From the IMG/VR virus record IMGVR_UViG_3300029733_000185: 64,000 nucleotides of DNA. The stretch is one strand, 5' to 3'. Made by a program: the position numbers and the translations under genes. This document shows positions 28,969-56,500 of this stretch, piece after piece. Source of the DNA: a virus (taxonomy: Duplodnaviria > Heunggongvirae > Uroviricota > Caudoviricetes). The notes under the pieces are model-generated. The model was not told the origin of the DNA. It worked only from the letters and a program-made list of their open reading frames with translations, and made no database searches. Positions within the stretch are counted from its first letter, which is position 1, and each line of letters begins with the position of its first letter.

Positions 28969-29057
28969 ACTAAAACCTCCTATACGGAAAAAGAGAGGAC
29001 AAAAGTCCTCTCTTCCTAAATTAAATTACATTATAATTATGCCATACTTGCTTAAAA

Positions 29058-29633
29058 TTAAGAAATCGACATTTGGTAATAAGATCTGGTGCTCATTTCT
29101 TCCAATGAATATCCATCCATACCATCGGATACACCCATGAAGATGCGATTTTCAATGTTCTTTCCAGTCTCATCTTTAAGATTGGACAACTGCAAATAAA
29201 CGACATGTGTCGTGTCTTTTGCCAATTGCGCGTCTACCATGGAATCCACTGCTTCTTTAACTGTTTTGATGTCGCTATAAGACAGTCCATCTGTGGATTT
29301 GTTCTCTTTATACAGCTTGGCAATGTCGTCACCCGTGTATACTGCATACACCCCTGTTACCTTATTAGTTGAATAGGTTGCGTCATCTGCATATGCAACT
29401 GAGCCATCATCGGAAAAAGTAAGATAAATGTCAGATCCTTCTGTGCCCTTTTGTGGCTTCATCACAAATGATTTGTTACTAAGCAGGGTTTGCTGCTTTT
29501 CCGGTGTACCATGCACGCCTCCGGTCACGCCGTAATAAATACCGCCAGCTACAGATGCAAGGACGATTGCAACAACTAAAATAATTGAAACGATTTTCTT
29601 CTGAGTTAATTTCAAAACAAACCTCCGGCTCAT
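29058..29633 (-). CDS. N-terminally anchored extracytoplasmic protein, unknown
   Basis: 191 aa; single TM; GGAGG RBS. Confidence 0.5.
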   Translation of the reverse strand: MSRRFVLKLTQKKIVSIILVVAIVLASVAGGIYYGVTGGVHGTPEKQQTLLSNKSFVMKPQKGTEGSDIYLTFSDDGSVAYADDATYSTNKVTGVYAVYTGDDIAKLYKENKSTDGLSYSDIKTVKEAVDSMVDAQLAKDTTHVVYLQLSNLKDETGKNIENRIFMGVSDGMDGYSLEEMSTRSYYQMSIS

Positions 29634-29641
29634 GAAAAAAT

Positions 29642-29717
29642 TGGTGGAAGCAGAGGGACTCGAACCCTCGACCTTCTGCTTGCAAAGCAGATGCTCTCCC
29701 AGTTGAGCTATGCCCCC
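29642..29717 (-). tRNA. tRNA-Ala(TGC)
   Basis: cloverleaf on minus strand; G3:U70 pair; anticodon loop CTTTGCAAG; CCA encoded. Confidence 0.8.
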
Positions 29718-29737
29718 AAATGAGAATCTTACCGAAA

Positions 29738-29813
29738 TGGTGGGAATAGTAGGTCTCGAACCTACGACCTCCTGCTTGTAAGGCAGGCGCTCTCCCAGCT
29801 GAGCTATATTCCC
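29738..29813 (-). tRNA. tRNA-Val(TAC)
   Basis: anticodon loop CCTTACAAG; T-loop TTCGAGA. Confidence 0.75.
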
Positions 29814-29816
29814 AAA

Positions 29817-29892
29817 TGGTGCCGGATCTCGGACTTGAACCGAACACCTCTGCGTTACGAAGGCAGCGCTCTACCAGATGAGCTAATCCAGC
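29817..29892 (-). tRNA. tRNA-Thr(CGT)
   Basis: anticodon loop TTCGTAA; C31-C39 mismatch. Confidence 0.6.
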
Positions 29893-29900
29893 GAAATGAG

Positions 29901-29976
29901 TGGTGCCACAGGCTGGAGTCGAACCAGCGACGCTCGGTTCTTCAGACCGACGCTCTACCTGCTGAGCTACCGTGGC
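29901..29976 (-). tRNA. tRNA-Phe(GAA)
   Basis: anticodon loop CTGAAGA. Confidence 0.8.
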
Positions 29977-29979
29977 ATA

Positions 29980-30055
29980 TGGTGCGAAATGCAGGACTTG
30001 AACCTACAACCTACGGCTTATCGAGCCGTTGCTCTGCCAATTGAGCTAATTTCGC
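29980..30055 (-). tRNA. tRNA-Ile(GAT)
   Basis: anticodon loop CTCGATAA. Confidence 0.75.
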
Positions 30056-30056
30056 A

Positions 30057-30132
30057 TGGTGATCGCAGTGGGATTCGAACCCACGATACAGGTTAGAAAG
30101 ACCTGCGGCTTAGACCGCTTGCCGATGCGACC
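30057..30132 (-). tRNA. tRNA-Glu(TTC)
   Basis: Glu-type D-loop AAGCGGTCTAAG; anticodon loop CTTTCTA with unusual U37. Confidence 0.55.
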
Positions 30133-30137
30133 GAAAA

Positions 30138-30214
30138 TGGTGAACGCACTGAGATTCGAACTCAGACTCTGCGGTTAGAGAGACCGCCATGTTAGCCTAT
30201 TACACTATGCGTCC
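30138..30214 (-). tRNA. tRNA-Glu(CTC)-like, isotype uncertain
   Basis: D-stem GTGT/ACAT; anticodon loop CTCTCTA (CTC with U37; alternative register would give TCT). Confidence 0.45.
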
Positions 30215-30217
30215 AAA

Positions 30218-30293
30218 TGGAGCAGGTGATCAGATTCGAACTGATGAATAATGGGTTTGCAGCCCACACCGTTAGCCTCTTCGGCACACCCGC
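30218..30293 (-). tRNA. tRNA-Cys(GCA)
   Basis: anticodon loop CTGCAAA; discriminator U73. Confidence 0.75.
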
Positions 30294-30300
30294 AAAAATA

Positions 30301-30376
30301 TGGCTCCCACGGCCAGACTTGAACTGACAACTTCCTGATTAACAGTCAGGCGCTCTACCGATTGAACTACGTGGGA
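30301..30376 (-). tRNA. tRNA-Asn(GTT)
   Basis: anticodon loop CTGTTAA; discriminator G73. Confidence 0.75.
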
Positions 30377-30380
30377 ATGT

Positions 30381-30457
30381 TGGCAGGGGCGGAGCGACTT
30401 GAACACTCGTGCCATGGTTTTGGAGACCAGGCGATTTCCTGTTATCTTTACGCCCCT
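30381..30457 (-). tRNA. tRNA-Trp(CCA), atypical D-arm
   Basis: acceptor AGGGGCG/CGCCCCT, anticodon loop CTCCAAA as in Bacillus tRNA-Trp; D-arm has an extra nucleotide. Confidence 0.55.
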
Positions 30458-30464
30458 GTATGTT

Positions 30465-30539
30465 TGGGTGGAATCCCGGGAGTCGAACCCAGATTACTTG
30501 TACCACAAACAAGCGTGCTACCGTTACACCAGAAACCAC
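30465..30539 (-). tRNA. tRNA-His(GTG)-like, possibly degenerate
   Basis: G-1:C73 feature and anticodon loop TTGTGGT, but two U-U mismatches in acceptor stem. Confidence 0.45.
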
Positions 30540-30617
30540 AAATGAGAAAGCGTATGTTTTGATTTTGCAACTATAATATAGAGCTGGGCTAAACATACAA
30601 AACAACTTCTACCCTTA

Positions 30618-30712
30618 TGGTGGTCGGAGATGAGGGAATCGAACCCACTCGAATGCCTAAGCACACCAGTTTTACAGACTGGGGTATCTACCTTAATACT
30701 TTAACCTCCGAT
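30618..30712 (-). tRNA. tRNA-Tyr(GTA)-like, long variable arm, irregular acceptor
   Basis: anticodon loop CTGTAAA, discriminator A73, long variable arm; A1-C72 mismatch. Confidence 0.45.
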
Positions 30713-30771
30713 TTATTAAATTGTCGCAGAATACCACGCCTGAACAACGGTTCAGACGTGGATAAATACAA

Positions 30772-32115
30772 CTATGCCGCGTTGTAAATTGTTTTTGCGT
30801 ATTTAAATGGTTGTAATTGCTTAACGCTTACAATTTTTTTGAATTCGTTATTTTTGATAGACACGTAAGTACCGCGGTTTTGTGTGCCAACCACTTCAAA
30901 TGTTCTGTTACGCCAAAGCACCGTATCATGTGGTTGGTACGGATATCGTTGTCTTCTGATAGATACTCTACCTTTGGAAATCTTTTGCTGTCTGTATGGA
31001 TGCAAGTTCTCACCATTCAGGTTTTTGTTACGAGTTGTTCTACCGCTAAATAATTCTTTACCGGTAGCCTTTTGACCCGTCCTTGCATCCACATATTTGG
31101 CATCGTGAAACTTTGCAAGACAACGATTATTTTTACGTTTCTCTTGCCAGAACACCGGTTCACACCGGTGCTTTGGCTGTTTGTCGCCGACACAATACGC
31201 ATCGTTGTAATGCGTTTTGTCTAACTGCAAATCTATCCGTTTGGATTTTGTCAAATAGCCAAAAGTCTCTACAACCGGAATCGTGTATTCATCACGCAGC
31301 TGTGTGATCAGCATTCGTCTGACCGTAGACATAAATGTCTCCGGTTTGAAAGACTTTTGCTTTGGTTGCAGACCATACAAAATCTGCCCCTTTTGATGAT
31401 TACGTGACGTATGACACTTGCTACACAGCGTTAATGTATTTGCAGGCGTATTTGAATGATCGTTTTTCCAATATCCGATATGATGCATGCGAAGCACTGC
31501 ACCATCTCGGAAAGCATTTTTACCACAGATCTGGCAAGTGTATCCGTCTCTGTAGAAAGTGTGCTCACGCAAATTTCGGAAGTCGTACATCTCGCCCTTT
31601 TGATATCCCTCACCGGAGATATCCGGGGTCTTTAATGCTTGAATATCGAAATTTGCGGTCTCTACATAGATCTTTGTAATCGGCAGAAGGCGCATCAACT
31701 TTCGAATGACCTTTTTGTGGCTGTCCAGCTTATGCTGAATGCTGGGTGCCAACCATTGGTCCGGTCTTCTGCGATTATCAAATCTTGGCTTGCGATGTCT
31801 CAAACGATTGCGACGCTTGCGACGATACGCTCGCCGGTCGTCTAATCGTTTGGACTGGTTTTCTAAAAGTTTTAATTCACCGGAAAACAACTCTTTGTTA
31901 TCAGTACAAGCAGAAATGCCAATATGCTGATAACCAGCATCGATTTTCAGATTAATGTCTTGTGTATTGTTTTCCGTCTCATAAAGCCATTGGATTGTAA
32001 ACGGATTGCCACTTACGACTTGAGCTTTATTGCTCTTCAACAGTTTGCGTACATAGCCACATCTTTCTGTTGGCATCAGTGGCTGGCCGTTTACATCTAA
32101 GACATACACCATCAT
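30772..32115 (-). CDS. iscB: IscB RNA-guided nuclease (PLMP, split RuvC, bridge helix, HNH, TI domains)
   Basis: 447 aa; N-terminus MVYVLDVNGQPLMPTERCGYVRKLLK (PLMP domain); RuvC-I LKIDAGYQHIGIS; Arg-rich bridge helix RRAYRRKRRNRLRHRK; HNH CQICG..HHI..N..CSKCH; RuvC-III HYNDAYCVG. Confidence 0.9.
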   Translation of the reverse strand: MMVYVLDVNGQPLMPTERCGYVRKLLKSNKAQVVSGNPFTIQWLYETENNTQDINLKIDAGYQHIGISACTDNKELFSGELKLLENQSKRLDDRRAYRRKRRNRLRHRKPRFDNRRRPDQWLAPSIQHKLDSHKKVIRKLMRLLPITKIYVETANFDIQALKTPDISGEGYQKGEMYDFRNLREHTFYRDGYTCQICGKNAFRDGAVLRMHHIGYWKNDHSNTPANTLTLCSKCHTSRNHQKGQILYGLQPKQKSFKPETFMSTVRRMLITQLRDEYTIPVVETFGYLTKSKRIDLQLDKTHYNDAYCVGDKQPKHRCEPVFWQEKRKNNRCLAKFHDAKYVDARTGQKATGKELFSGRTTRNKNLNGENLHPYRQQKISKGRVSIRRQRYPYQPHDTVLWRNRTFEVVGTQNRGTYVSIKNNEFKKIVSVKQLQPFKYAKTIYNAA

Positions 32116-32474
32116 AAGATATGGCTCCTTTCAATAAATTTGGTCTGGAATGACCAGCGCACAGACGGAGCCAAAGGCCCGGTCTGTGGTAAACCCACAT
32201 CGTCAATGTTATGAATTGTTTGTTGTGTACTGCACGTCTCCGACCCCATCAGAGATTTTTAACAACACACCGTAGTGCAAGGGGCTTGTGGAGCACCCCT
32301 TGGTACCTATTTGGCAGCCGAAGCTGCCATTAAAACATAACGTAGCACTCGAAGTGCTTAGACTAATCAACTATGGGCTTGTGATTTCTTACAAGCCCCA
32401 ACTGACTGTTTCACGGTTAGTCTGGGGTAATTGACAGTCAGGACCGCTACCGTTACGGAATATCGACGCATATA
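32116..32474 (-). ncRNA. omega-RNA of IscB (scaffold plus 5' guide region)
   Basis: about 360 nt non-coding region immediately upstream of iscB on the same strand; several stable stem-loops (GGGCTTGTGATTTCTTACAAGCCC, AAGGGGCTTGTGGAGCACCCCTT, CTGACTGT..ACAGTCAG). Confidence 0.65.
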
Positions 32475-32564
32475 CTGGTGCTGATAGTGGGAGTCGAACC
32501 CACACGGTGTTGCCACCATCGGGGCTTAAACCCGATGCGTGCTGCCAATTTCGCCATATCAGCA
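32475..32564 (-). tRNA. tRNA-Leu(TAA)
   Basis: 90 nt incl. CCA; anticodon loop TTTAAGC, long variable arm. Confidence 0.75.
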
Positions 32565-32629
32565 CATATAAATAGCCACACCTGATAGCCATACACACCA
32601 TTCAGTGTGGCTTTTTGCATTTATCGTTA

Positions 32630-33124
32630 TTATTTGGTAATCCGATCCGCAATTGTACTGGCCACAAAGGAATTTGGCTTGGTTTCAACATCGTAGCCGC
32701 AAGAGCGGATCCAACTTACCAACCCTGGGATAAGATCCTTTGTTTTCCCGTTAACCGAATTGCCCGCATCAATATGAATTGACAATGGATATTCTGCAAA
32801 CATCTCTCTATATATTGCATTACCCTCAAACATGTCTACCAGTTCCCCAGCCAAAGTTAACCTGGCAGCAGTTTCAGTTTGCAATTTGAGTTTTACATTT
32901 TGGATTAAGTCCTCACGAGAAACTTCGTAAAAGAAGATACCTCCATGTCCATGGGCAACAACCGCAATAACAGATACCATTTTTGTATTATTGAAATTTT
33001 GACTATCTGTGCCGACGATGATACTGATTTGATCTGTTTGTGCTTTATTACGCCGGTAATAAGCCAAGATAGCATCTGGAATTTCTGTAAGCTGTATTGA
33101 ATTCCCTGAACCGGTACAAAACAT
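32630..33124 (-). CDS. hypothetical protein embedded in tRNA array (possible RNase H-like fold)
   Basis: 164 aa, AAGGAGGG RBS; no secure motif; weak resemblance to YkuK/DUF458-like proteins. Confidence 0.45.
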   Translation of the reverse strand: MFCTGSGNSIQLTEIPDAILAYYRRNKAQTDQISIIVGTDSQNFNNTKMVSVIAVVAHGHGGIFFYEVSREDLIQNVKLKLQTETAARLTLAGELVDMFEGNAIYREMFAEYPLSIHIDAGNSVNGKTKDLIPGLVSWIRSCGYDVETKPNSFVASTIADRITK

Positions 33125-33148
33125 TGGACATACCCTCCTTGTAATTTT

Positions 33149-33236
33149 TGGCGGCGATGGAAGGATTCGAACCTTCGAGCCTTTTACAGCTAACGCGTTA
33201 GCAGTGCGCCGGTTTCAACCACTCACCCACATCGCC
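33149..33236 (-). tRNA. tRNA-Ser(GCT)
   Basis: 88 nt, long variable arm, anticodon loop CTGCTAA. Confidence 0.65.
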
Positions 33237-33240
33237 AAAA

Positions 33241-33316
33241 TGGTGCGCCGTTTGGGGTTCGAACCCAAGACCTCCAGATTAAGAGTCTGTTGCTCTACCG
33301 ACTGAGCTAACGGCGC
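33241..33316 (-). tRNA. tRNA-Lys(CTT)
   Basis: anticodon loop CTCTTAA. Confidence 0.7.
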
Positions 33317-33320
33317 ATAA

Positions 33321-33397
33321 TGGTCTGGACAACAGGATTCGAACCTGCGGTCTCCGGATCCCAAATCCGGCGCTTTACCAAACTAAGCTACGTCCAG
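33321..33397 (-). tRNA. tRNA-Pro(TGG)
   Basis: anticodon loop TTTGGGA. Confidence 0.75.
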
Positions 33398-33484
33398 ATA
33401 ACCAAATACATGCAGACAGATCAGATTTGCCGTGAAATATGTGCTCGACCACAGCAAGAATTCGATCTGATTTTGTCTGCATAT

Positions 33485-33559
33485 TGGCACCGCCTGCAGG
33501 ATTTGAACCCGCATTACAAGGTCCGTAGCCCTGTGTTCTGTCCTTTGAACTAAAGCGGT
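33485..33559 (-). tRNA. tRNA-Arg(ACG)
   Basis: anticodon loop CTACGGA. Confidence 0.75.
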
Positions 33560-33564
33560 GTATA

Positions 33565-33641
33565 TGGTGCCCCTACGAAGATTTGAACTCCGAATTGGGG
33601 ATTAGAAGTCCCCTGTTTTATCCAGATTAGACTATGGGGGC
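33565..33641 (-). tRNA. tRNA-Arg(TCT)
   Basis: anticodon loop CTTCTAA. Confidence 0.75.
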
Positions 33642-33644
33642 ATA

Positions 33645-33719
33645 TGGAAGCGATGCCGGGGATCGAACCCAGAATGCAAGAGTCAAAGTCTCGTGTTTTG
33701 CCGATTAGACTACATCGCC
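33645..33719 (-). tRNA. tRNA-Gln(TTG)
   Basis: anticodon loop CTTTGAC. Confidence 0.7.
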
Positions 33720-33838
33720 ATATAAGAGCAGGTTTTTCATTGACTGGGACACACACCAAAAATCTGGTGGAGGTGCGCAACGCTTCTCGTACTGCTATCT
33801 CGGCAATACCGAACGAGGCGAGTCCGGAACTCGCAAAT

Positions 33839-33924
33839 TGGTACTGGATAAGGGACTTGAACCCTTACGATCTAAATCAACGGATTTTGAATCCGTCGCG
33901 TCTGCCAAATTCCGCCAATCCAGT
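33839..33924 (-). tRNA. tRNA-Leu(CAA)
   Basis: 86 nt, long variable arm, anticodon loop TTCAAAA. Confidence 0.75.
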
Positions 33925-33939
33925 ATTTACATGAAAAAG

Positions 33940-34026
33940 TGGCGGGGCGTCAGGGACTCGAACCCTGAAGGCTGTTACACCCAACGGTTTTCAAGACCGC
34001 ACGACTACCAATTATCACAACGCCCC
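33940..34026 (-). tRNA. tRNA-Ser(TGA)
   Basis: 87 nt, long variable arm, anticodon loop CTTGAAA. Confidence 0.6.
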
Positions 34027-34120
34027 ACATATGCGGCAGACCGATATCGATCTGTTATAAGAACATTGGGAGAGGTGAATCACCCCTCTTATGCAGGAAC
34101 TCCTAAGTTACCTTGTTACA

Positions 34121-34197
34121 TGGCGACTCCGACCAGGCTCGAACTGGCAACCTCCAGCGTGACAGGCTGGCGCTCTACTCTTTTGAACTACGGAGCC
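34121..34197 (-). tRNA. tRNA-Asp(GTC)
   Basis: anticodon loop CTGTCAC. Confidence 0.8.
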
Positions 34198-34200
34198 ATA

Positions 34201-34286
34201 TGGTGCTCGATAAGAGATTCGAACTCTTACATCTTTCGATACCAGATCCTAAATCTGGCGCGTCTGCCAAATTCCGCCAATCGAGC
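34201..34286 (-). tRNA. tRNA-Leu(TAG)
   Basis: 86 nt, long variable arm, anticodon loop TTTAGGA. Confidence 0.75.
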
Positions 34287-34299
34287 AAATGAATAATAA

Positions 34300-34375
34300 T
34301 GGTGCGCCGTCAGAGAATTGAACTCTGGACCTTTAGATTATGAGTCTACTGCTCTAACCACTAAGCTAACGGCAC
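34300..34375 (-). tRNA. tRNA-Met or tRNA-Ile2 (CAT), elongator type
   Basis: anticodon loop CTCATAA; no initiator features. Confidence 0.65.
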
Positions 34376-34388
34376 AAACAACACAAAA

Positions 34389-34464
34389 TGGTGCGCGCAC
34401 GGGGACTCGAACCCCGGACCAATGGATTAAAAGCCCACTGCTCTACCAACTGAGCTATGCGCAC
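34389..34464 (-). tRNA. tRNA-Lys(TTT)
   Basis: anticodon loop CTTTTAA. Confidence 0.75.
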
Positions 34465-34477
34465 ATATTGGTTACAT

Positions 34478-34494
34478 CTATTAATACCACAAAT
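34478..34494 (-). promoter_or_regulatory. extended -10 promoter (TGTGGTATTAATA) driving tRNA sub-operon
   Basis: same TRTGnTATTAAT motif recurs at 22011-22026, 35941-35956, 38032-38046, 61755-61772. Confidence 0.45.
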
Positions 34495-34581
34495 TACAAA
34501 AAAACAAAAAAATGACCGGCTCAACAACGAAAGTTTTGATCGCGTTGAAACCGGCCAAGGTGCAATGAAAAAAATCCAAAG

Positions 34582-34658
34582 TGGAGCAGATAAGGGGATT
34601 TGAACCCCCACCACCGGTTTGGAAGACCGGGATGCTGACCATTGAACACCATATCTGC
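34582..34658 (-). tRNA. tRNA-Gly(TCC)
   Basis: anticodon loop CTTCCAA. Confidence 0.8.
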
Positions 34659-34663
34659 ATAAG

Positions 34664-34739
34664 TGGTGCTGGATATCTGACTCGAACAGATTACCTTCGG
34701 GTTACAAAGCCGACGTTCTACCAGGTGAACTAATCCAGC
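34664..34739 (-). tRNA. tRNA-Thr(TGT)
   Basis: anticodon loop TTTGTAA; C31-C39 mismatch as in the other Thr gene. Confidence 0.65.
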
Positions 34740-34768
34740 ATTTATGCGCCTTTGAAGGCGCTTGGATT

Positions 34769-35086
34769 TCAGGGCAAAATACACTCCAAAAAATGATGCA
34801 AATCAGGCATCGGAATGTATTCCCGCCGCACCTCAGCAATGTCCTTGCCGTCGCGATCATGCGGCAAGGCGTTATATTCTTTGACATAATTTTGCACAAG
34901 AGTATTGAGCAATTCTTGCTTCTTTTCTACCAGCTGCTTGCACTGGCGCAGAGACTCAACCGCAGAGACAATCTCATTTTCCTTTTCTCTGCGAACGTTT
35001 TCTCTGTCCTGTAAAGCGTTCTCAGCTGTTTTTAGCTGCTCTTCAGTGTCATATAGTTCTTTAGTCAATTCTGAAAAATATTTCAT
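34769..35086 (-). CDS. coiled-coil hypothetical protein
   Basis: 105 aa, heptad-rich, charged. Confidence 0.45.
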   Translation of the reverse strand: MKYFSELTKELYDTEEQLKTAENALQDRENVRREKENEIVSAVESLRQCKQLVEKKQELLNTLVQNYVKEYNALPHDRDGKDIAEVRREYIPMPDLHHFLECILP

Positions 35087-35253
35087 ATTTGTACCTCTCT
35101 TAAAAATAATTCAAACCTTTGAGTATTACGATAGCAGTTATCAGTAAAATGATAATCCTACTTAGCCATAAAACCCACTGTCTACTCGAAACACGCAGTG
35201 CATAAACGCACACAGATGTTGTTAGCGTAATGGCTATAAGCCAAATGAGACGA

Positions 35254-35409
35254 TTAGTCTCCAAACCACATCGTGCACCACTTCAAGATGCCCTCAACGT
35301 CTGGATCTACATGCTCTTTATTCTTGCAGGCGTTAACGATTAAATCAAACGCCTTTGCCTTATCGGCTGGCTTCATTTCAGTCAATGTTTCAAAATCTTT
35401 TTCAATCAA
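35254..35409 (-). CDS. small protein candidate (51 aa, TTG start) not in ORF track
   Basis: GAGGT RBS 8 nt upstream of TTG; balanced composition; coordinates +/-1. Confidence 0.25.
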   Translation of the reverse strand: MIEKDFETLTEMKPADKAKAFDLIVNACKNKEHVDPDVEGILKWCTMWFGD

Positions 35410-35462
35410 TGTTTATTACCTCTTTTGACAAATATTGTTGCACATTTGCCCGTGCCAGGCTT

Positions 35463-35538
35463 TGGGCCCGGGAGTGGGATTCGAACCCACGACTGTTGGC
35501 GTATGAGGCCAACCTGCTAACCGCTGCATTATCCCGGT
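35463..35538 (-). tRNA. tRNA-Met(CAT)-like, A1-G72 mismatch
   Basis: anticodon loop CTCATAC, T-loop TTCGAAT; mismatched first acceptor pair; not initiator-like (no GGG/CCC anticodon stem). Confidence 0.5.
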
Positions 35539-35562
35539 ATATAAGCCGCAGAAGCGGCTGTA

Positions 35563-35925
35563 TTAAAGTTTTCTATCCATATTGAGTTCTCTATCGATCT
35601 CTTGCTTAATCGTTACCATACGAGACAGAGTGTCGTATCGTAATTTAACGGCACTGACAATCTTGTCGATAACATAAATTTTATCAATGGCGTCTTCCTT
35701 TCTTTGTTTGTCACCGTCTCTTGCACAAAGACGCTTTTGAACAGTCGCAAGCGCAGACAGTTGCATCAAAAAGGAATACTGGTTTGTAGTCGTTGAGAGA
35801 TAAGTCGCAACCAACGACAAATCGTCCGGACTTTCTACCCCGAAGGGAACGTCATACACAAAGTCTTTTTCAAGTTCTTCCAAAAGACGTTCAGGGGCCA
35901 ATTCAAGATATTCTCTGCAGTTCAA
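35563..35925 (-). CDS. hypothetical protein
   Basis: 120 aa; TTG start 7 nt after GAGGTGG RBS. Confidence 0.5.
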   Translation of the reverse strand: MNCREYLELAPERLLEELEKDFVYDVPFGVESPDDLSLVATYLSTTTNQYSFLMQLSALATVQKRLCARDGDKQRKEDAIDKIYVIDKIVSAVKLRYDTLSRMVTIKQEIDRELNMDRKL

Positions 35926-35967
35926 TTAACCACCTCACATCTATTAATACCACACATTTCAAAAATA

Positions 35968-36537
35968 CTAAAAAATTAAGGAAAAAAGACAAAAAAGAAT
36001 AAGACTTAATGTACCAAAACGCAAGAAATGCCGGACTATCCAAAGCCACTGCACTTTTCCAATCCACCCAGCAATTGAATACGCACCACTACTCGTTCCC
36101 TTACGCGAATTACAAGTTCGACAAGCTGCAGCTAAATTCTTTTCGCAGTTGATGTTTTCAATCCCGGCCCTTTTAAGCAACCATTGTTTAAATTTGCTGC
36201 TTTTTACAGGCGCAATGGGAACAATATGATCTACTGTTACTTGGGCTTTTGGCAAAAGACGTCCACAGTACGCACAGAAGTAATGTCCGTCTATGCCTTT
36301 ATTGCATGAAAAAAAGGTTCGTCTATAAGATGAACCTCTTGTGAATGCTTGATTAACTAAACTATATCGCAAATGATGGCGCTTACAGTATTTTTCAACC
36401 TGTCGCTCCATCGACTCATCAAGCCCGTCAATAGATGTACATCTTTTTTGTTCATTTAAGAAGGGCTTAAACTCGTGTAAATCATTTCTGACGTATCTTT
36501 TCGTTGACCAGATGTCAACCACATAACTGTCTCCCAT
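35968..36537 (-). CDS. HNH endonuclease
   Basis: 189 aa; CAYCG...DHIVP...N..C..CNSRKG motif. Confidence 0.65.
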   Translation of the reverse strand: MGDSYVVDIWSTKRYVRNDLHEFKPFLNEQKRCTSIDGLDESMERQVEKYCKRHHLRYSLVNQAFTRGSSYRRTFFSCNKGIDGHYFCAYCGRLLPKAQVTVDHIVPIAPVKSSKFKQWLLKRAGIENINCEKNLAAACRTCNSRKGTSSGAYSIAGWIGKVQWLWIVRHFLRFGTLSLILFCLFSLIF

Positions 36538-47561: not shown

Positions 47562-50500
47562 TTACCACGGAGAAGTCTCACGTGTCTTGAAGTCGTCAAA
47601 CAGGCTTCCGTTGATCTTTACGGCGTTTGAATCACCAACATAGCTTAACATACCACTTGGCGTCCAGCAATCAGCAACACGAACCTGGATCTTGTAGTCC
47701 GTATCGTTTGGATACCATACCGGGACATGGTGCAGTGAACGTGCGCTGCTGTCCTCATCCTCATATTCCATAAACTTAAACCAATATGGGTTTTCGTTCG
47801 TGTTGGCACCAGTAGGACGCAATGATGCATAAGGTCCAAAATACTTTCTGTCAGTTGGAACCGATTTGAGTCCATACATCGCATACAACGCCGAGTATTT
47901 ACCATTGATTGTCTGGTAATTGTACTCTGGATAATATGCCAATGCAGATTGCGCGTTTACGCAACTATCATCTGGTAAAACAGGATCCGTCTTACGCTGT
48001 GGCGTTAAGTCCGCTGTTACTCGACTCTCAAGACTGTAACCGCTTTTGGTTTCCCAGTAATTCTCGTCGTTATTGTTTTCGACTTTTTTGCTTGGGTTCT
48101 GAGCACTGCCTGCACCGGTAGATGCCAGAGGTTTTAACAGATTCTCTTGGAAGCCAAGTCTTGCTGTGTAAGTATGCAGTTTAAACACTCCATTTTCGCA
48201 GGTGTATTCCTGCCATGAAGTCGTGTTCGCATACGGCTTGTCATTTGTCGGGTCTTTATAAGAATATCCATCTCCACCATTCAGGTTATAACCTTCATAA
48301 TTTGTGAAACTGGTATCGTCAAGATCGTTTAGCTGCACAAGGTTTTTGTCTTGCAGCCCTGAGTCGCAATACACAAACTGTCCATTCCCCTCGTCATTAT
48401 AACGTACCTGAACCCACGGTACGACACCATAGAACTTGTATCCCAATGATTCATAAGAGTCGTCAATTGAACTAACAGCAGGCGTTCTAACAGTATAATA
48501 AATCAGATTGTTCTTTGCAGCCGGTACTACAGCGGTTCTGGCGGCGTACTGACAGTTGTATCGACCAATCAATTTCTTATCGTATTTGACTTCCACATTT
48601 TCAATGGCTTCATACTGCCACTCTCCTGTGTTTAAATTATACAATTTGGCATACAGACCACCGGTCGCATTCAAAGCATTTTGATCGGTAAAGTTTTTCG
48701 TGCTGTGGTTATCCACTATAAAGGACGTTACAACATCCGTGCCATATGAATACTTTGCATTTGGATATTGGAATTTAACATCCACGGGCAGATACTTTTC
48801 ATTGACATAACAACCGACATTGTAAGTAGCACCTTTACTTCCGTCTGTCGGAACACCGCCAAACAAACCGATGTGCTTTTTTTCTGAATCTTTATGTCCT
48901 GGTGCTTCATAGCACAATTGATACTTTAAATTTGCTGTACCACTTGGTCCACACCCGAACCACATTGTTGATGGCTCTGAATAATACGCTGTCATAGAAT
49001 CCAAAAGCTCTTTCGGGAAGTAATAGCTAAATACAAACGGGAAATCTTCTTTGTTATAGTAAGAAGAAAGCTTTGTGTTTGCTTGTACTCCGCTTGAAAT
49101 AGCAAATCCCATATTTTCAATTTGCTCTTCTGGACTTAATGCAAAGACCTCTCCAAACTGCGCTGCCCAAGAGTTTTCATCGATCGTATCGCGATTTGTT
49201 TCCGGTCCGTACAGCATTTTCGCAAACTCTAATTCCGTCATAGTGTCGGAGCTAACATTTTTCTCTTTTACAGCACTGTCTGGGATTGCATACGGCAATA
49301 GATCCACCTGTCTCTTTAATGGGTCAATCGGATCCGTAGAGCCACCAGCGGCTTCATATGCTTCTTTTGACAGATAGGTGTTGACGACTATGCCAGCCGT
49401 ACACTCAACGTCAAATGAATGGTCTGCAGTAATATTTTCAAAGGTATAGCTACCACCACTCCAGTACTTATAAACGTCGCTGACTGTCTTTTCAGTGTCG
49501 AGTCCTTTATCAATCACAATCTTATTTACCATAAATCCGTCATTTGGCGTAAACTCAATGGTTTTTGTTTCGCCATACTGTATTTCGGTAATTGTATCTG
49601 TAATTGTGCCGTTTGTAATACTGGTAGTAATTGTAAACGCAGGCACACAAACCACCTCAATAGACTTATCACCTACAAGCATTTGCAATAAGTCAACACG
49701 ATATTCTTGCTTATTTGCATCCCAATTCCAAATCAACGGACGAGTTGGGGTAGCCTTGCCACCTTGTGTAACCTTCTTTCCGTCAATCAAGACGGTATCA
49801 ACACGATAGCCTGGATCTGGTTTGAACGTAACAATACCATATGCCTTTGCTTGACTATAGTTACCATAGCGCAATCCCGTTACCGTATCAGAAATCGTTC
49901 CGTGTTGAATGCTGGTCGTGATTTTACAAGTATTCAAATCCATTTCAGCAGTATAATGTTCAGTTCCCTCATATTGCAACAATGGAGCTCCTTGTATATC
50001 GCTTTTGAATTTAAATACCAGGTTTGCAGTTGCATTACCTACATTCCCATTATAATTGGTTGACGTTTTTCTGCCATACAAACCAAACAAACGACGCTCA
50101 TCTTCTTGAATCGAAGATTCAATACTTGACAATATCCGCACGCTCATTTTATAAGGGTGCGTGCTTACAGGATAACGAGAGTCAGAACCATCATTTTTTT
50201 CAATTTTATAACCAGTATAGAAAAAATTCGATTTTCCAAACCCTTCGTTTGTTCCAGCAGCGCCACCACACCAAGTATAGGAATAACCGTCATTGTCTTT
50301 TAATACATCTCCATTTTCAAGTGTAATAGGTGTCGTGTAATTTGGACGTGCATCCCACTGATTTAACCTTGTTAATGGAAGCTCAGTATCATCATTTGAC
50401 TCCCCAAGCGTATGAAGCGTATTGCCTAATGTAACCTTATTTCCTTTGTTTGCACCGGCTGTGACAACCGTATTCTGTAATTTGTTAATATTATCGACTT

Positions 50501-53500
50501 TTTGCTTTAACCGGTCAGATTGGAATTCGTATGCGCTTATACCAACAAAATCGCTTGGGCGAACACCGGTTTTAGTAAGCATTTCAAATGGATTTACAAC
50601 AATGTCTGGATTTTCTTTTAAGCTGTTTTTGATATTATACTTTGTTGCGGCATCAGTTGCGTATATATCAATCGTTGTTGTAGAACAAAGCACCTTCAGA
50701 ATAACAATAAATGAACCATCGCGAGGCAGATTGTGCAACTTAAAATCACTTAACATATTATATAACGCATCAGAAGATATAGTAGTATCCGAATTTCCAA
50801 AGTAAAAGACTTCTGAATTCTCGTAATCAATATCCTTACCCCGGTATGTCACATCATCCGGAGACTGCGGATAAAGAGACTTTAAAGCGGTATATTTAAT
50901 AAAAGCGTCATCGTCATCCTCGTGAATAGCGTTATATGCATTATCTGGTATATTTCCTAATGGATAATACTCCAAGGCGAAGCCATATGCGTTCAAGCCT
51001 TCCATACCTTGTTGTAATTGATTCACATAATCTTTATCATCAAAGCTTGTCACTGTACACGATTGACCGAGCGAAAGGTACTTGGCAGACTTCTTAACCG
51101 CAGTACCGTCTACGCTAATTGGCAAACCATTCGACGTTACTGCGTAGAATTCACCGTATACTGATGATGCATCCACGAAGTTCAGCAAAATATTATTTCC
51201 GTTTTTAAAAGGCATTTTAGACACATCAGACAAGCTTTCAAAGGCTGCACTGCTTTCTCGTCCTATTTCTGCCTTTAAATCAGAAACGGGTGTATAGCCA
51301 GACAAAGATTTTACAGTAGCGCTCAAATCTTCGTTGTCAGATTTTGAAAAATCGTCGCACAAAACATTGTAATACAAGTCTTCGCTTGATTTTACAGTTA
51401 CAGAAATCCGATATTTTTTAATCAACTTAAAGTTTGATTTAGCTTTGCTGAACGCAGTTGTGTAAAAGCTGATACCCTTTGTTAACAAGCCGGCATTGTC
51501 ATCAGAATTCAAATTCCAGCCGTTGGCAAATTCTGTGACCTGCATAGCATTGTTGGACTCTTTTTCAGCTTTATAATCATCATAGCTAACAGAAAAATCA
51601 AACTCCGACTTCGTTTTTTCATCACGATATTGATAAGTCTTATTGTAATTTAATACTCTTGGAAGATCAGCTGCCGTTGGCTTGGTGTCGCGGCCATTGA
51701 TTAACATTTCGACAGCATTTGCCGTATCTGCCATAAGATTTGTGTCTGCCGTCTTGCCGACATCTCTCAGATTCACAGAAGTGTAAGGAGTGAATTTTCC
51801 GGAATTATTTTTTGTATAAAATCGAATGGTTGGCTCTGCATTTTTAAAAAACGAAAGCCCATCGTAAGACTTCATATCAATGGCGTCAAAATACATTGTA
51901 ATGGTTTGTTCATGCAATTTATCTGACTTCAGATAATAATCGGCCTTTGCATATTTTCCTGTATATGTAACCTTTTGAGACGGCTCATCAAACCATACGG
52001 AGCTTTTTTTGTTTTCCCAAACATTGACTGCTTTCCCATTTTGAATAAATGAAAAATCAAAACGATAGTTGCCAGGTTCCTTAGGATAGTACGCATAATT
52101 AAAATACACAGAACCATCATTTCCTAAAGACATATCTTTACTAACATCGATTTCTTTATCCAATTCTACAGCCTGATATTCACCTGTTTCGTCCTGCTTA
52201 TACACACTCAGCGACAATTTCTCGATCGGCGAATTACCATCTTCATCCGGATTTAAATTCATGGAATTAAGATGCGTATGCACACGCAAATCCACATAAG
52301 CCGCACTGTACAAATCAACTTCTGTTAGATAATTTTTCCCGATAACCGATTTTTGACCTGTAACCTTCGCGCCTGCAAAAGCCTTCAAAGATGAAACAAC
52401 CGTCTTTTCCTCGACCGTCTCAAAAGGCTTACCAACCTGTGCGTCAGCGTTATTAACGGCATCGTATGAGTAATAACTTAGTTTAACAGATTGATAATCC
52501 TGAATATTCTTATCGTCTTGTCCCACTCTAAAATCATGATCAGGAAGAATCAAAAATTTATAAGAATCAGCATCACCTTTAAACTCGACCATTCCGTTTT
52601 CATCGGTCTTGTACACCTTTACGTCTGGATCAGAATTTGGCTCACCGCAAACAGAACAATACAAGTCAGAATATTTGTTGTAGACGTAAAATGTACTCGC
52701 ATGGTTGAATATATTGTTTTCATCTAACCAGTCCAGTACCTCACCACATGCCGGGCATTTGATTGCACCCAAAGAACAATGTTCACCGCAAACGCTACAC
52801 TCACGATAAGAACACCCAGCGCAAACCCATTTTAAATCTTCCGGGTTTTCTGATTTTGCAAAGTCATCAAACTTATCGTTTGAAAGTACCAAAATTGAAG
52901 CGTTTTGTGCGGGCTTGCGTGTGCCGTCTGAAGAATCATAAATAACCAACCGGTTAAATTGGTCTCCGACATAACACTCTGCATCATATTCTCTTACTTG
53001 TCCTGTATATCGTATGCCACCGCCGGTCACTTCATCTTGATAATAATATCGATCAGTTGTGTTGTCACGAATAACAAAGTAATAGTAATAACCGACTTGC
53101 AGTTCGCTACTTTCCAGTCTCACCTGTGCATAAGACGGATAAAGTACAGTAGAGCACTGCGTTGTGCCTGGTGCTTGTAAGGTGCCACACTCATAGCACT
53201 GCCATCTCTTTGCTTGATCTTTGCACAGCCACTTCGTGCTGTTTCCGATTTTTACTTCATAAAATGTTTTTACAATCAGATCTTCTGGCGCTACTTCTAC
53301 AGAAGAACTACATAGATTGATAGGCATCGCAGATAAAAAGCCGTCACTGCTCATTTGATATGGAGTCGTTTTGTGAATAATTTTGTTGCTTTTTTGTAAC
53401 GCTTCAACATTATTTCCTTCAACCCAGTGACCGCCCGGGCAATATACAAAGGATTTTGATTTACCAGTGTATTCATAGCCAGCAACACCATACTGCTTAC

Positions 53501-56500
53501 CAGTGCATCTCTCCGGGTATTGAGGATTATTGAGTGTGTTTGGCGTTGCGGTCGTCAATTTATCGGTTACATCCTTTACGTACTCCACATCATACATTGA
53601 ACCTTGACAAGTCAGCGTAGAGTTAGAATGGCCACAGGTAGAGCACTTCCAAGTCTTGGACGAAGCCGTTTGTTGCATATAGGTATTTGTGCATGTTTCT
53701 CCATCGCATTCAAAACCACTATTTGTAGTTCCGCACTTTGAACATTGCCATGCTTCCGGAACAACCCAAAACTCAGGGACACTTCCCTGGTCGTCGATAG
53801 ATTTACCGCAGTCTGGACAAATAGAAGCATTCTCTACGATACTACCGCATGAGCACTTCCAAGCATAGTCGTTTTGAGCCGTCAAATAATCAGTGAAATT
53901 TGAACCACACTTTTCATTGATGTTGTTGAACAATTCATCCGCATTGACCGGCAGCGAAGAAAGTGACTTGGATCGATACAAAAGCAGCTGAGAACCGGTT
54001 TTAAGCAGATTTAAAGCCCCAACAGCTTCGTCTCCGCGAGCAAACAAATTATACTCAATACCGCCTTCACCATCGCCCTTAGGCATATAATACAGATACA
54101 CATTCAGAGTGCCGTGCATTTCATCAACAGTAAAATCAGGCTCCGCTGCTACTTCTTTATGTTGGTAGTTACCAAACACATCTATGTAACCATAAGCACC
54201 AACATAATCGCATGTGCTTCCACCATATTCTACAGATTCTTTGAAATATGGAACGTTTTCTGTAGTCGTTGTTGTATTGCCGTCAGCGTCCGTCTGTTCA
54301 ACGGTATCTTCATAATAACCGCCTTTAAATGTAAACGCTTTAGCTGCGTCCCAATCCAGAACCTTCGATGACACAATAGCGTTGTCTTCATAGATAGAAG
54401 AACTATTGTAATCAAAGCTGTCTGTCAATGCCACATAGTTCAGAATGACTTTAGAATCACTGACCGGAGCAAATGTAACATGGATATCAGAAGCCTTCAA
54501 AGATGCAACATTCGTGTTGAAGGACATTTTATAGAACTGCTCACTGTTTTGTGGATAAAGTGTTCTGGAACCAACAGGGCTGCCGTCTTTATTTACTGCA
54601 CCATCGTCTACAACAATGCTCACAATCTTAAAGCCAGTTGATTTTGGAATCGAAACCGTAACTACCTTGCCCAATGAGTTATTGTCCGTTACATACATAT
54701 CTGTTTCCACAGAATTTTCGTATTCAGTTGAAGCTCCGGCCTGCCCGGAAGGCTTAATCGCCTTGTTGCTCCCCTCTTGAAGCGTCCAGTTATCTGATAC
54801 GCTTACCCATTTGGAGATTTTCTTTTGTGCCTCATCTGCAGCTTCTTTTGCATCAGCCGCAGCTGCCACCGCCTGATCATCACTTGGATCAATTGTTACA
54901 TCTTTATAATTGGACTCATAATAATTGATGGCATTTAGCAAATCATCAATTCCGGACAAAGAACCGGCTGCTGAAATATTGTTTTGCAGCTGCCACTGCG
55001 CATAATAGGTTACTTCACCTTCAGCAGGCGTCTTGATCGTCGTTACCTGATCTTTAGCATAATCATAGTTATCTGCCGTAGCGCCCCAGCCCTTGAATGT
55101 CCTGTTCAGATCTTCCAAATCGCCGTTCAGCCCGGCTATTGCAGCTGTGCCCGTACAATCATGCCCCTTTACTGAAGGCGCATTGATCGTCTGTCCAACG
55201 TTAGCAGTTGTTGAACTGATCGTTGCACCACACAGCGCACAAGCGAAGTTTACCGTAGACTGCAGCGTGAATGTGTACTTTGCATAATACACTGTCACTT
55301 TAGCACTTGGCATTGTAATGTCATTGCCGACAGTCAATGAAGCATTATCCGACTTATCATTCACCGTATAATCAGGATTTGTTCCCCAATAGCTGAATGC
55401 AATTTTATAATCACTCAGCGGATGACCTTTGTATTGCAAATTACTTAAATTGCTGGAGTCATTATGAGACTCGCCTGCAGGCACAGGACCCTGTGTTGAG
55501 CCTGGTGCACCACGCAGCAGCGCAATCTCATTTTCATCAATGGAACACTTAAATAAAACTTTGTTTTCATTCGTCAACTTGAGGGTGTACTTTGCATAAT
55601 ACTTTTGCGTGCTGCTTGGCACAGTTGTTTGAGAACCGGCCTTATGGTTGCTCAACACGCTCAAGCTATCGTTCAGTGTGCCGGTAGCCAGCTTATCATT
55701 TGCATTGCTGTCTTGCCCCCAACCTTGGAATGTGATTGAATAATCTCCAACATCAATGGTCTTGCCATTGTATGTAATCTTTCCACCGTTGACAGAGCAC
55801 ACATGTTTTGAACCGGTTGGGATAGTGTACTTTTCTCCGGCGTAATGTTCTCTGTCATTTTTACTGGTTGAAGTATCATACAGTTGTGCTCCGCACAAAC
55901 CGCAGTAATACACTGCTCTGCCCTTTGCGTTCTCTTTCTTATCCAGGCACATCCAGAATGTGGTATCGCCATAAATCTTTTTCTGACTTGGCGTCGGATT
56001 GGTCATTTTTGAGCCATTCTTTGACGCGCTCCAATGTTTATAGCTATAAGTATATTTGTAGTTGTTGTGCTTTTGAGGATGCGTCTTTTCTTGGTCGTTG
56101 AAGTAGCTTCCGGAAACTGTCTCACCATGTGCCACAGCAATCATCTTTAAGGTCGCTCCATCTTCAGAACATTTTAAATAAGCCTTATGTGCCACGGTCT
56201 TTAGATTAAACAGCACACGCACGGTATCATAACGACCACCACAGATATAGCCCTTAACACCGGCAGTTTTATCTTTGCCCTGGAAATACGTTGCTTTGTT
56301 ATAAATATCAGGTGCATTCATATGCCAAGCCAAATTGACAGACACATTGGACCGGCGGGATGTGTAGAATGTCAGCTTATTACCGCTCACTTCTACCTTC
56401 ATAAACGGTTCTGCAGGTTTTGTTTTCAGCTTAGCGGAGCTTACTGGAACATAGCCATAATAGCTGCTATCCTTTTTTTGCTTGTTACCAAAATACACGC

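Follow-up and report, generated by a model that had tools for sequence, protein, structure and literature searches.

The stretch of DNA considered here, 64,000 nt of the IMG/VR virus record IMGVR_UViG_3300029733_000185 (the window, always meant at its full length), carries a 1.72-kb unit made of an iscB gene, which encodes an IscB-type RNA-guided nuclease, and of the omega-RNA scaffold that precedes it on the same strand. This unit lies in an array of tRNA genes, and we will examine how its ends, its guide and its neighbours connect it to that array. We consider it to be, with a probability of roughly 0.8, a non-autonomous IS200/IS605 OMEGA element lodged within a gene for tRNA-Tyr(GUA), in the tRNA array carried by a large mobile replicon, where it would be maintained by retention and homing. 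The features on which this reading is built are the following, in which TAM stands for transposon-adjacent motif and ORF for open reading frame, dN/dS is the ratio of nonsynonymous to synonymous substitution rates, and contigs compared with the window are designated by an L and a number.

30772-32115, minus strand: iscB, 447 aa, from its ORF, family models, motifs, fold and dN/dS
32189-32435, minus strand: omega-RNA scaffold (Rfam HEARO RF02033), model positions 1-211 of 211
32116-32188, minus strand: linker from scaffold to start codon, with two hairpins and the ribosome-binding site AAAGGAG, from sequence and fold
32436-32452, minus strand: predicted guide CGGTAGCGGTCCTGACT, taken from the flank that adjoins the right end and corresponding to tRNA-Tyr positions 17-33
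32436-32469, minus strand: 5' half (positions 1-33) of an interrupted tRNA-Tyr gene, hereafter Tyr2, from alignment to the tRNA-Tyr genes of L059, L060, L046, L048, L051 and L055
30717-32435, plus (top) strand, its genes being read on the minus strand: core IS200/IS605-type (ISC) OMEGA element of 1.72 kb, from copy-to-copy DNA comparison
30712-30716, plus strand: TAM TTTAT (ATAAA in guide orientation, 3' of the target), directly 5' of the left end
30734-30761, plus strand: imperfect left-end hairpin CCACGCCTGAAC-AACG-GTTCAGACGTGG, an inverted repeat with 12-nt arms that are 92% complementary
30621-30710, minus strand: Tyr1, a complete tRNA-Tyr(GTA) called by ARAGORN, standing where the 3' half of Tyr2 would be
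32476-32563, minus strand: tRNA-Leu(TAA), called by ARAGORN and Rfam, the upstream neighbour in the co-oriented array

By every criterion that can be applied to it, the protein is an IscB and thus, by family, a predicted OMEGA RNA-guided nuclease. A preliminary description made from the sequence alone had proposed a 447-aa ORF with the full IscB domain order and had listed its motifs, each of which is indeed found: GQPLMPT at residues 10-16 (the PLMP motif, which aligns with the PLMP region of solved IscBs), LKIDAGYQ at 56-63, the Arg-rich stretch of the bridge helix at 94-118, the HNH insertion motifs CQICG (194-198), MHHIG (210-214) and CSKCH (231-235), and HYNDAYCVG at 302-310. The profile alignment that the same description had advised gives 330.4 bits against a cutoff of 175 for the NCBIfam equivalog model NF040563 (guided_IscB, 'RNA-guided endonuclease IscB'), to which are added the Pfam matches RRXRR PF14239 (204 bits) and HNH PF01844 (29.6 bits against 21.4, residues 194-240). 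An HNH domain inserted in RuvC is the feature that separates IscB from IsrB, and the absence of a CRISPR array is what separates IscB loci from Cas9 loci; no tandem or spaced repeats of a CRISPR array are present between 26000 and 38000. The catalytic residues of RuvC (D59, E152, H302, D305) and of HNH (H211/H212, N226, H235) are all conserved, and D59, E152, H211, H302 and D305 align with D61, E193, H247, H340 and D343, the catalytic residues of OgeuIscB (PMC9640706).

A sequence search of solved structures returns IscBs as its best matches (E ~1e-43), to which the window protein is only 20-24% identical. The sequence models stop at residue 310, and the C-terminal 137 residues are outside their reach. 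The AlphaFold (AF2) model, of pLDDT 78.8 and built from 35 homologues, aligns in Foldseek over its full length with the IscB-omega-RNA-DNA complexes 8csz, 9liq and 7xht (E 5e-28 to 3e-22, TM 0.53-0.57), and the C-terminal WED and TAM-interacting domains are thereby predicted to be present, as judged by this full-length fold alignment. More than 6,000 homologues were collected, the closest of which are 82-96% identical and lie in unrelated neighbourhoods, and a scan of GTDB genomes with the protein gave only relatives of ~40% identity. The dN/dS is 0.07-0.18 against the other copies and 0.18 against L068, an allele at the same site; these comparisons of coding sequence show an intact gene under purifying selection.

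The non-coding part of the unit is characterized just as well. About 360 nt of highly structured non-coding sequence had been described upstream of iscB on its strand, and the 361-nt stretch found there folds at -123.5 kcal/mol (z = -3.9 against shuffled sequences). The covariance search recommended in the preliminary description finds in it a full-length and co-oriented HEARO match, 73 nt before the iscB start codon, with 129 bits against a gathering score of 83 (E = 2e-26). HEARO is the omega-RNA of IscB (PMC13565253), and it also matches at an equal relative position in L001, L003, L026 and L040-L043. The linker that follows the scaffold contains a terminator-like hairpin at 32156-32141 and may be the 3' part of the omega-RNA. 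In OgeuIscB, the ~17 nt located 5' of the scaffold serve as guide (PMC9640706). The copies of the unit are alike from the first base of the scaffold on, the preceding 16 nt are unlike in every copy, and the flanks beside the scaffold are altogether unrelated from one copy to the next, as expected if the flank is the guide. Because the guide of an IscB is the flank that adjoins its right end, the predicted guide of the window unit consists of tRNA-Tyr positions 17-33. Its location at the end of the unit that faces tRNA-Leu had been rightly foreseen, but the range given, 32440-32474, has to be replaced by 16-17 nt at 32436-32452. As to the expression of this RNA, no promoter-like site exists in the 40 nt between tRNA-Leu and the scaffold, and since regional hits are at chance level, a dedicated omega-RNA promoter was rejected; the tRNA-Leu side is the likely source of a read-through transcription that would extend into the omega-RNA. 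Separately, eight assemblies (L011-L014 and L021-L024) break within the omega-RNA region (window 32189-32347), which is suggestive of several copies or alleles of IscB/HEARO being present together in those samples.

The site that the unit occupies can be defined through relatives that are devoid of it. The 16 nt beside the scaffold (GGTAGCGGTCCTGACT) are found within annotated tRNA-Tyr(GTA) genes of four other large IMG/VR contigs, where they are always followed by GTAAATCAGG. The neighbouring ribonuclease H-like (RNaseH-like) gene was used as an anchor to find empty-site contigs. The sister contigs L059 and L060 have flanks that are 94-96% identical to those of the window, with the same tRNA-Leu(TAA) and the same downstream genes, and neither of them contains IscB or HEARO. 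Both carry, after tRNA-Leu, one intact 87-nt tRNA-Tyr(GTA) gene that reads GCGTCGATATCCCGTAACCGGTAGCGGTCCTGACT, then GTAAATCAGG...GCGCACCA, and it is exactly between the first two of these segments that the scaffold begins in the window, that is, between U33 and the anticodon base G34 of Tyr2. The comparison thus shows that the unit interrupts the tRNA-Tyr gene in its anticodon loop. On the antisense strand, the junction falls 3' of TTTAC, one mismatch away from the TAM TTTAT; this is the only pentamer of the 87-nt gene to come within one mismatch of the TAM, so that a random junction would fall there with a chance of ~1/86. The guide matches the tRNA-Tyr of L059 at 17/17 positions, that of L060 at 16/17 and those of the four unrelated arrays at 16/17, with the 16 TAM-proximal bases exact. 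The 3' half of Tyr2 that would be expected on the other side of the unit (T-arm and TCGACGC acceptor strand) was searched for in the window and was not found there.

This changes the picture of the site that had first been drawn. The unit had been described as sitting exactly between two tRNA genes, and its guide as belonging to an intergenic spacer, whereas the alleles of L059 and L060 place it within tRNA-Tyr, and the supposed spacer (32469-32436) is the 5' half of that gene. A comparison with relatives lacking the insertion had been recommended to recover the target and the TAM, and these two contigs give the target site and the TTTAC junction. The connection to tRNA genes is a particularity of this site: 0/19 of the other IscB/HEARO loci examined are joined to a tRNA, and the idea of a tRNA association as a habit of the IscB family was rejected.

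Let us now turn to the mobile unit itself. Its similarity to L001, L002, L003, L004, L005 and L069 (81-95%) extends from 32435 (GTCAATTACCCC..., the first base of HEARO) down to 30711-30713 (...CAATTTAATAA). The boundaries of the copies are sharp at both ends, and they are the same in L001, L003, L005 and L069, which are located at unrelated sites; near-identical copies with the same sharp ends at unrelated sites make this a mobile element. The right end is TTGAC, with its last base at 32435. The left-end hairpin is conserved in all copies as well as in an end of L001 that lies beside a Y1 transposase gene. The TAM TTTAT/ATAAA was deduced from the insertion junctions: TTTAT is found 16-17 nt outside the left-end hairpin in the window, in L003 and in the Y1-linked end of L001, and L001, L005 and L069 show there a degenerate inner GTTAT followed by 35 more shared nt up to an outer TTTAT, beyond which the flanks diverge. 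This 35-nt extension (L001 7404-7438, L005 1480-1514, L069 3903-3937) carries AAGGAGG and a TTG start, and has the appearance of flank DNA carried along with the unit through use of the outer TAM. In this family, the TAM abuts the left end of the insertion sequence and is read by both TnpA and IscB (Meers et al., 10.1101/2023.03.14.532601), and the plus strand of the window was accordingly taken as the top strand of the transposon. The conserved target motif abuts the left end only, the right-end flanks being unrelated, and the unit has neither terminal inverted repeats nor a target-site duplication.

The window contains one copy of the unit, or of its ends. There is no room for a tnpA gene within 1.72 kb, and a Pfam scan of 20 window ORFs gave none either; lacking tnpA, the unit is non-autonomous, which is the state of most ISC elements, in which tnpA is commonly absent (PMC13565253). 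The same hairpin and the same TAM adjoin the Y1_Tnp gene of L001, so a partner family does exist. On the basis of its sequence, the unit is therefore a member of the IscB/HEARO OMEGA family, in the non-autonomous ISC branch of IS200/IS605. The missing tnpA and the nature of a mobile, non-autonomous OMEGA element had both been recognised from the start. The existence of the unit between 30716 and 32474 had been recognised too, and it is its limits that need revision, to 30717-32435 with the TAM at 30712-30716: the next 40 nt, which reach 32475, belong to the flank and include the 34-nt tRNA-Tyr remnant.

The left side of the unit is occupied in two different ways, which we call states W and C. 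The empty state and these two are present in metagenomes such as SRR31242708, SRR30347316, ERZ28636233, ERZ27306212 and ERR912033. In state W, AT and then the complete Tyr1 gene (30710-30621) come after the unit, and the homology to the empty site resumes beyond Tyr1 at CACCATAAGGG. This state is that of the window and of most assemblies, namely L006-L010, L016-L018, L020, L022-L026, L039, L058 and L068. Tyr1 is separated from the left end by 2 nt, and the 17-nt guide mismatches it at 11 positions. This gene had been taken for an intact flanking gene of the site, and it is instead a different gene that replaces the severed 3' half of Tyr2. Related genes occur as ordinary constituents of other large arrays (L082, L083), and the cloverleaf of Tyr1 is kept by compensatory changes with respect to L082, L083 and L055 (8/21 pairs). 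The window Tyr1 scores below the Rfam tRNA gathering score, its tRNA-Sec model score being 38.8 bits; the Rfam tRNA scores of the Tyr1 relative of L082 and of the Tyr2 of L059 are 35 and 34 bits. Bacterial tRNA-Tyr normally starts with a G1-C72 pair, and we observe that Tyr1-type genes (window 30621-30710, minus strand; L082 2338-2427; L083 9231-9320) have C1-G72 as their first pair, with A73.

State C is found in L019 and L021, which come from two samples. The unit and AT are followed there by positions 1-33 of Tyr1 and by the intact 3' half of Tyr2, so that state C amounts to the empty site with a clean insertion, nothing having been duplicated or lost, and its chimeric tRNA has an acceptor stem that is unable to pair. 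The unit of L019 differs from that of the window at 1/1,723 positions (99.94% identity), with flank identities of 98.0% on the left and 96.3% on the right. Between L068, which is in state W, and the window, the divergence is ~2% in the unit and the flanks alike, and state W is therefore the older one; most simply, then, state C would derive from a W-type genome. Over the stretch from G34 to about +750 nt, the haplotype of L019 is that of the empty lineage (7/8 informative sites), and in its other parts L019 goes with the occupied lineages. On the left, the switch falls in the 7-nt CTGTAAA, the only identity between Tyr1 and Tyr2 at that place, which is in the anticodon loop, that is, at the target of the guide. 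A junction in 7 nt of identity is unlike the product of ordinary homologous recombination, and its sequence fits a broken end at the guide target that would have been resolved by microhomology.

The lineages that carry these alleles are mosaic, as shown by the three-taxon informative sites, which group L059 with L060 in the left flank and the window with L059 in the right flank. We had also considered that co-conversion from a window-like donor might have produced the left flank of L019, and this was dropped when most of the sites shared by L019 and L059 turned out to be window-specific changes. The tRNA-Leu(TAA) alleles were also compared (window 32476-32563, minus strand; L059 2073-2159; L060 1241-1327): one allele is common to the occupied lineages (window, L068, L019) and differs from that of the two empty-site lineages at ~24 sites, a pattern that could have come from common descent or from hitch-hiking with the IscB unit. 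Given the window-specific changes and this allele common to all occupied lineages, co-conversion on the left side of L019 is not demonstrated. Two origins fit state W itself: a tandem Tyr2-Tyr1 ancestor that later underwent a deletion beside the right end, or a capture of Tyr1 as left-end flank, comparable to the 35-nt extension of L001, L005 and L069.

These elements lead to the following working model, in which nuclease activity and homing are deduced by analogy. The omega-RNA and iscB would be transcribed along with the tRNA operon, and the IscB-omega-RNA complex would cut DNA that bears the 17-mer followed by the TAM. A TnpA supplied in trans would excise the unit and leave a joint of CGGTAGCGGTCCTGACT to ATAAAT, which would be a cognate target. 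The TAM is common to TnpA and IscB, and homing at donor joints is the retention mechanism of IscB and TnpB (10.1101/2023.03.14.532601). The uninterrupted tRNA-Tyr of sister replicons (guide followed by GTAAAT) would be a possible second target. In either case, repair of the break from the occupied copy would retain or spread the unit (restorative homing), and the mosaic state C of L019 and L021 is the kind of product that such a break would leave. The DNA that encodes the guide is followed by GTCAA, two differences away from ATAAA, and no other match to the guide with at most two mismatches exists in the window; since GTCAA is not a TAM and Tyr1 is unmatched by the guide, the replicon is expected to be spared by its own nuclease. 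The array would probably still be supplied with tRNA-Tyr through Tyr1.

Several points weigh against this model. The activity of the nuclease and the expression of its RNA are deduced from what is established for IscB and TnpB elements at large. In GstIscB, single-base changes of the TAM abolished cleavage (10.1101/2023.03.14.532601), and given this intolerance and the fact that GTAAA is not the cognate ATAAA, the cutting of the intact allele is uncertain. As no tnpA lies in the unit or among the 20 scanned ORFs, its current mobility would need a partner outside that set. The position of Tyr1 below the Rfam tRNA threshold makes its function probable only. The junction of state C equally fits a TnpA that would cut after TTTAC in both anticodon loops, and state C is indeed possible without IscB, if TnpA excises an extended unit at the TTTAC of Tyr1 and inserts it at that of Tyr2. 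Finally, the two origins of state W fit the data alike, and the lineages are too mosaic to be rooted.

Other explanations can be confronted with the same evidence. The most serious, which we nevertheless hold to be improbable, is that of a natural 'cleave-and-rescue' drive or weapon, in which IscB and its omega-RNA would be kept by the host replicon to destroy or convert competing sister replicons, or other elements, that carry the common Tyr2-type gene, the tightly linked and guide-resistant Tyr1 would be the rescue, and transposition would no longer be the point; state C in L019 and L021 would then be the fossil of an RNA-guided break repaired at the 7-nt microhomology. Such a role would account for a unit that is fixed at its site in more than 15 independent assemblies with no tnpA found in the window (20 ORFs, Pfam), for the purifying selection on iscB at the site (window against L068, dN/dS 0.18), for the guide match to the tRNA-Tyr of L059 (17/17) and to four unrelated large IMG/VR contigs (16/16 TAM-proximal bases), for the placement of Tyr1 2 nt from the left end with its 11 guide mismatches and for a recombinant joined at the target site, and it has a precedent in T4 SegB, which cuts the tRNA region of co-infecting phages (PMC13565253). 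Yet all these observations are equally expected of an ordinary insertion sequence with a flank-derived guide, and the near-identical copies elsewhere show that the lineage is still an active transposon. The TAM of the intact allele is one base off (GTAAA against ATAAA), a tRNA gene of an accessory replicon is unlikely to be essential, so that a rescue may carry little selective weight, and state C, which has no functional tRNA-Tyr, indicates that the rescue copy is not always carried.

At the other extreme, the unit could be an inert relic, a stranded and non-functional IscB copy persisting by descent. Although this would agree with the lack of a nearby tnpA, the single copy in the window and the fixed position in the lineage, we regard it as very improbable, given an intact ORF with all its catalytic residues, a dN/dS of 0.07-0.18, a full-length omega-RNA well above threshold, intact ends and TAM, and, in L019, a near-identical unit between diverged flanks, which speaks for recent movement. 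Least probable of all is an intergenic insertion between intact tRNA-Leu and tRNA-Tyr genes, with no gene disrupted and a guide drawn from the spacer 32440-32474. It is what ARAGORN alone would suggest, since the program calls a complete tRNA-Leu and a complete tRNA-Tyr on either side and nothing between them and the unit. Nevertheless, 32469-32436 (34 nt) correspond to positions 1-33 of a tRNA-Tyr that is intact in L059 and L060 and has counterparts in four other arrays, the scaffold starts at G34, and state C retains the matching 3' half of Tyr2 after the unit; the comparisons with the empty site and with state C thus refute it. An OMEGA element inserted in tRNA-Tyr, and maintained there by retention and homing, is the reading that we keep.

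This element can be set beside better-known systems. OgeuIscB (7xht, 8csz) and the ISGst5 IscB of Geobacillus stearothermophilus have the same domain order (PLMP, split RuvC with bridge helix, HNH, WED and TAM-interacting domains), and their elements likewise have a HEARO-type omega-RNA upstream on the same strand, a guide from the flank, a TAM at the left end, a sub-terminal hairpin and no target duplication. Unlike them, the window unit sits in a tRNA anticodon loop within the array of a mobile replicon, and its guide is tRNA-gene sequence. With the retention and homing systems of Meers et al. (10.1101/2023.03.14.532601; PMC11870625), it would share a guide that matches the transposon-free site, with repair from the occupied copy, and a setting in a possibly multicopy mobile replicon with recombining relatives; the difference is that the argument here is one of comparative sequence, through the mosaic state C, and that the vacant allele has a near-cognate TAM. 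The free-standing SegB of the T4 tRNA cluster is also a nuclease gene in a tRNA cluster whose target is the tRNA-gene sequence of related genomes, and its own tRNA region is favoured in inheritance (PMC13565253). SegB differs in that the DNA is recognised by the protein alone and that it is not the passenger of a transposon, whereas the window unit would be RNA-guided. The window protein is an IscB and not a SegB-like free-standing, protein-only homing endonuclease (GIY-YIG or similar), and the likeness is thus one of mechanism, not of kinship. Integrative elements that insert into tRNA genes and restore them rely on tyrosine or serine integrases, and it is the 3' part of the same tRNA that they duplicate. 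The window element resembles them in having a tRNA gene as target and in probably leaving a functional tRNA of the same identity, and it differs in that the anticodon loop is split by a Y1-type element and the replacement is another, complete tRNA-Tyr gene.

The replicon that hosts the unit is large: contigs with an identical array are up to 622 kb long (ERZ27263939 k119_178583). Almost all the genes of the window are on one strand. Their products include VirB4/TraG-like, M23 peptidase, RecD-like, topoisomerase III, primase, SSB, sigma factor and DUF4320 proteins, and scans of the window proteins against Pfam and PHROG gave no clear capsid or portal. A 148-kb relative is listed as viral in IMG/VR. 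With VirB4/TraG-like and the other such proteins present and no clear capsid or portal, reading the replicon as a phage is not established, and 'mobile element', be it a phage or a conjugative element, is a fair description of it. A near-identity search of GenBank phages and of PLSDB plasmids with 29000-36000 returned only tRNA-sized matches. The 3,383-aa ORF at 47562-57713 (minus strand) has no PHROG match at E <= 1e-5. The tRNA array is closely preceded, on its upstream side, by a free-standing HNH endonuclease ORF of 189 aa (35968-36537, minus strand; PHROG HNH families, best E = 1e-12).

The tRNA array has a biology of its own. The ribonuclease H-like/YkuK gene within it (32630-33124, minus strand; Pfam PF04308, 121 bits) has homologues of 49-51% identity (L027-L029) in the tRNA arrays of distant 90-394-kb IMG/VR contigs without IscB, and since such distant, IscB-free arrays carry it, this gene looks like a conserved resident of tRNA arrays. 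Positions 1-787 of L015 (Logan ERR11474252_50353) correspond to window 33298-32512, with an identical RNaseH-like gene and tRNA-Ser, and the contig then passes, halfway through tRNA-Leu(TAA), into genes of chromosomal appearance (two-component system, DUF1385, PrmC), which would be either a chimeric assembly through the shared tRNA or an integration junction that might point to the host. L019 and L021 (right flank, +434 to +515) are without ~82 nt downstream of tRNA-His (window ~30103-30137) and have one tRNA fewer, and L060 is without several tRNAs (Asn, Cys and two Glu), so the content of the array is polymorphic among close relatives. The arrays of other large viral contigs include a tRNA with anticodon TTA, which reads the UAA stop codon (L028 7399-7470), and a tmRNA gene with the tag ANNYALAA (L055 5810-6083).

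IscB and its omega-RNA are textbook OMEGA components, already recognised by the standard annotation models, and the value of this locus rather lies in a natural series, made of an uninterrupted allele, two different occupied alleles and independent copies, which fixes the ends, the TAM and the guide to the base. This series shows a Y1-type transposon using the anticodon loop of tRNA-Tyr (GTAAA/TTTAC) as a near-cognate target. What is new is thus the natural history of the element: an insertion site in an anticodon loop, a guide derived from a tRNA, a guide-resistant tRNA-Tyr at the left end and a recombinant at the target. With a perfect match of the guide to a vacant allele and a recombinant at that very site, it offers a field example for testing omega-RNA-guided homing between diverged genomes. 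If GTAAA is accepted by the nuclease, this locus would constitute direct natural evidence of inter-genome homing by IscB and of an arrangement that couples the nuclease to a resistant allele.

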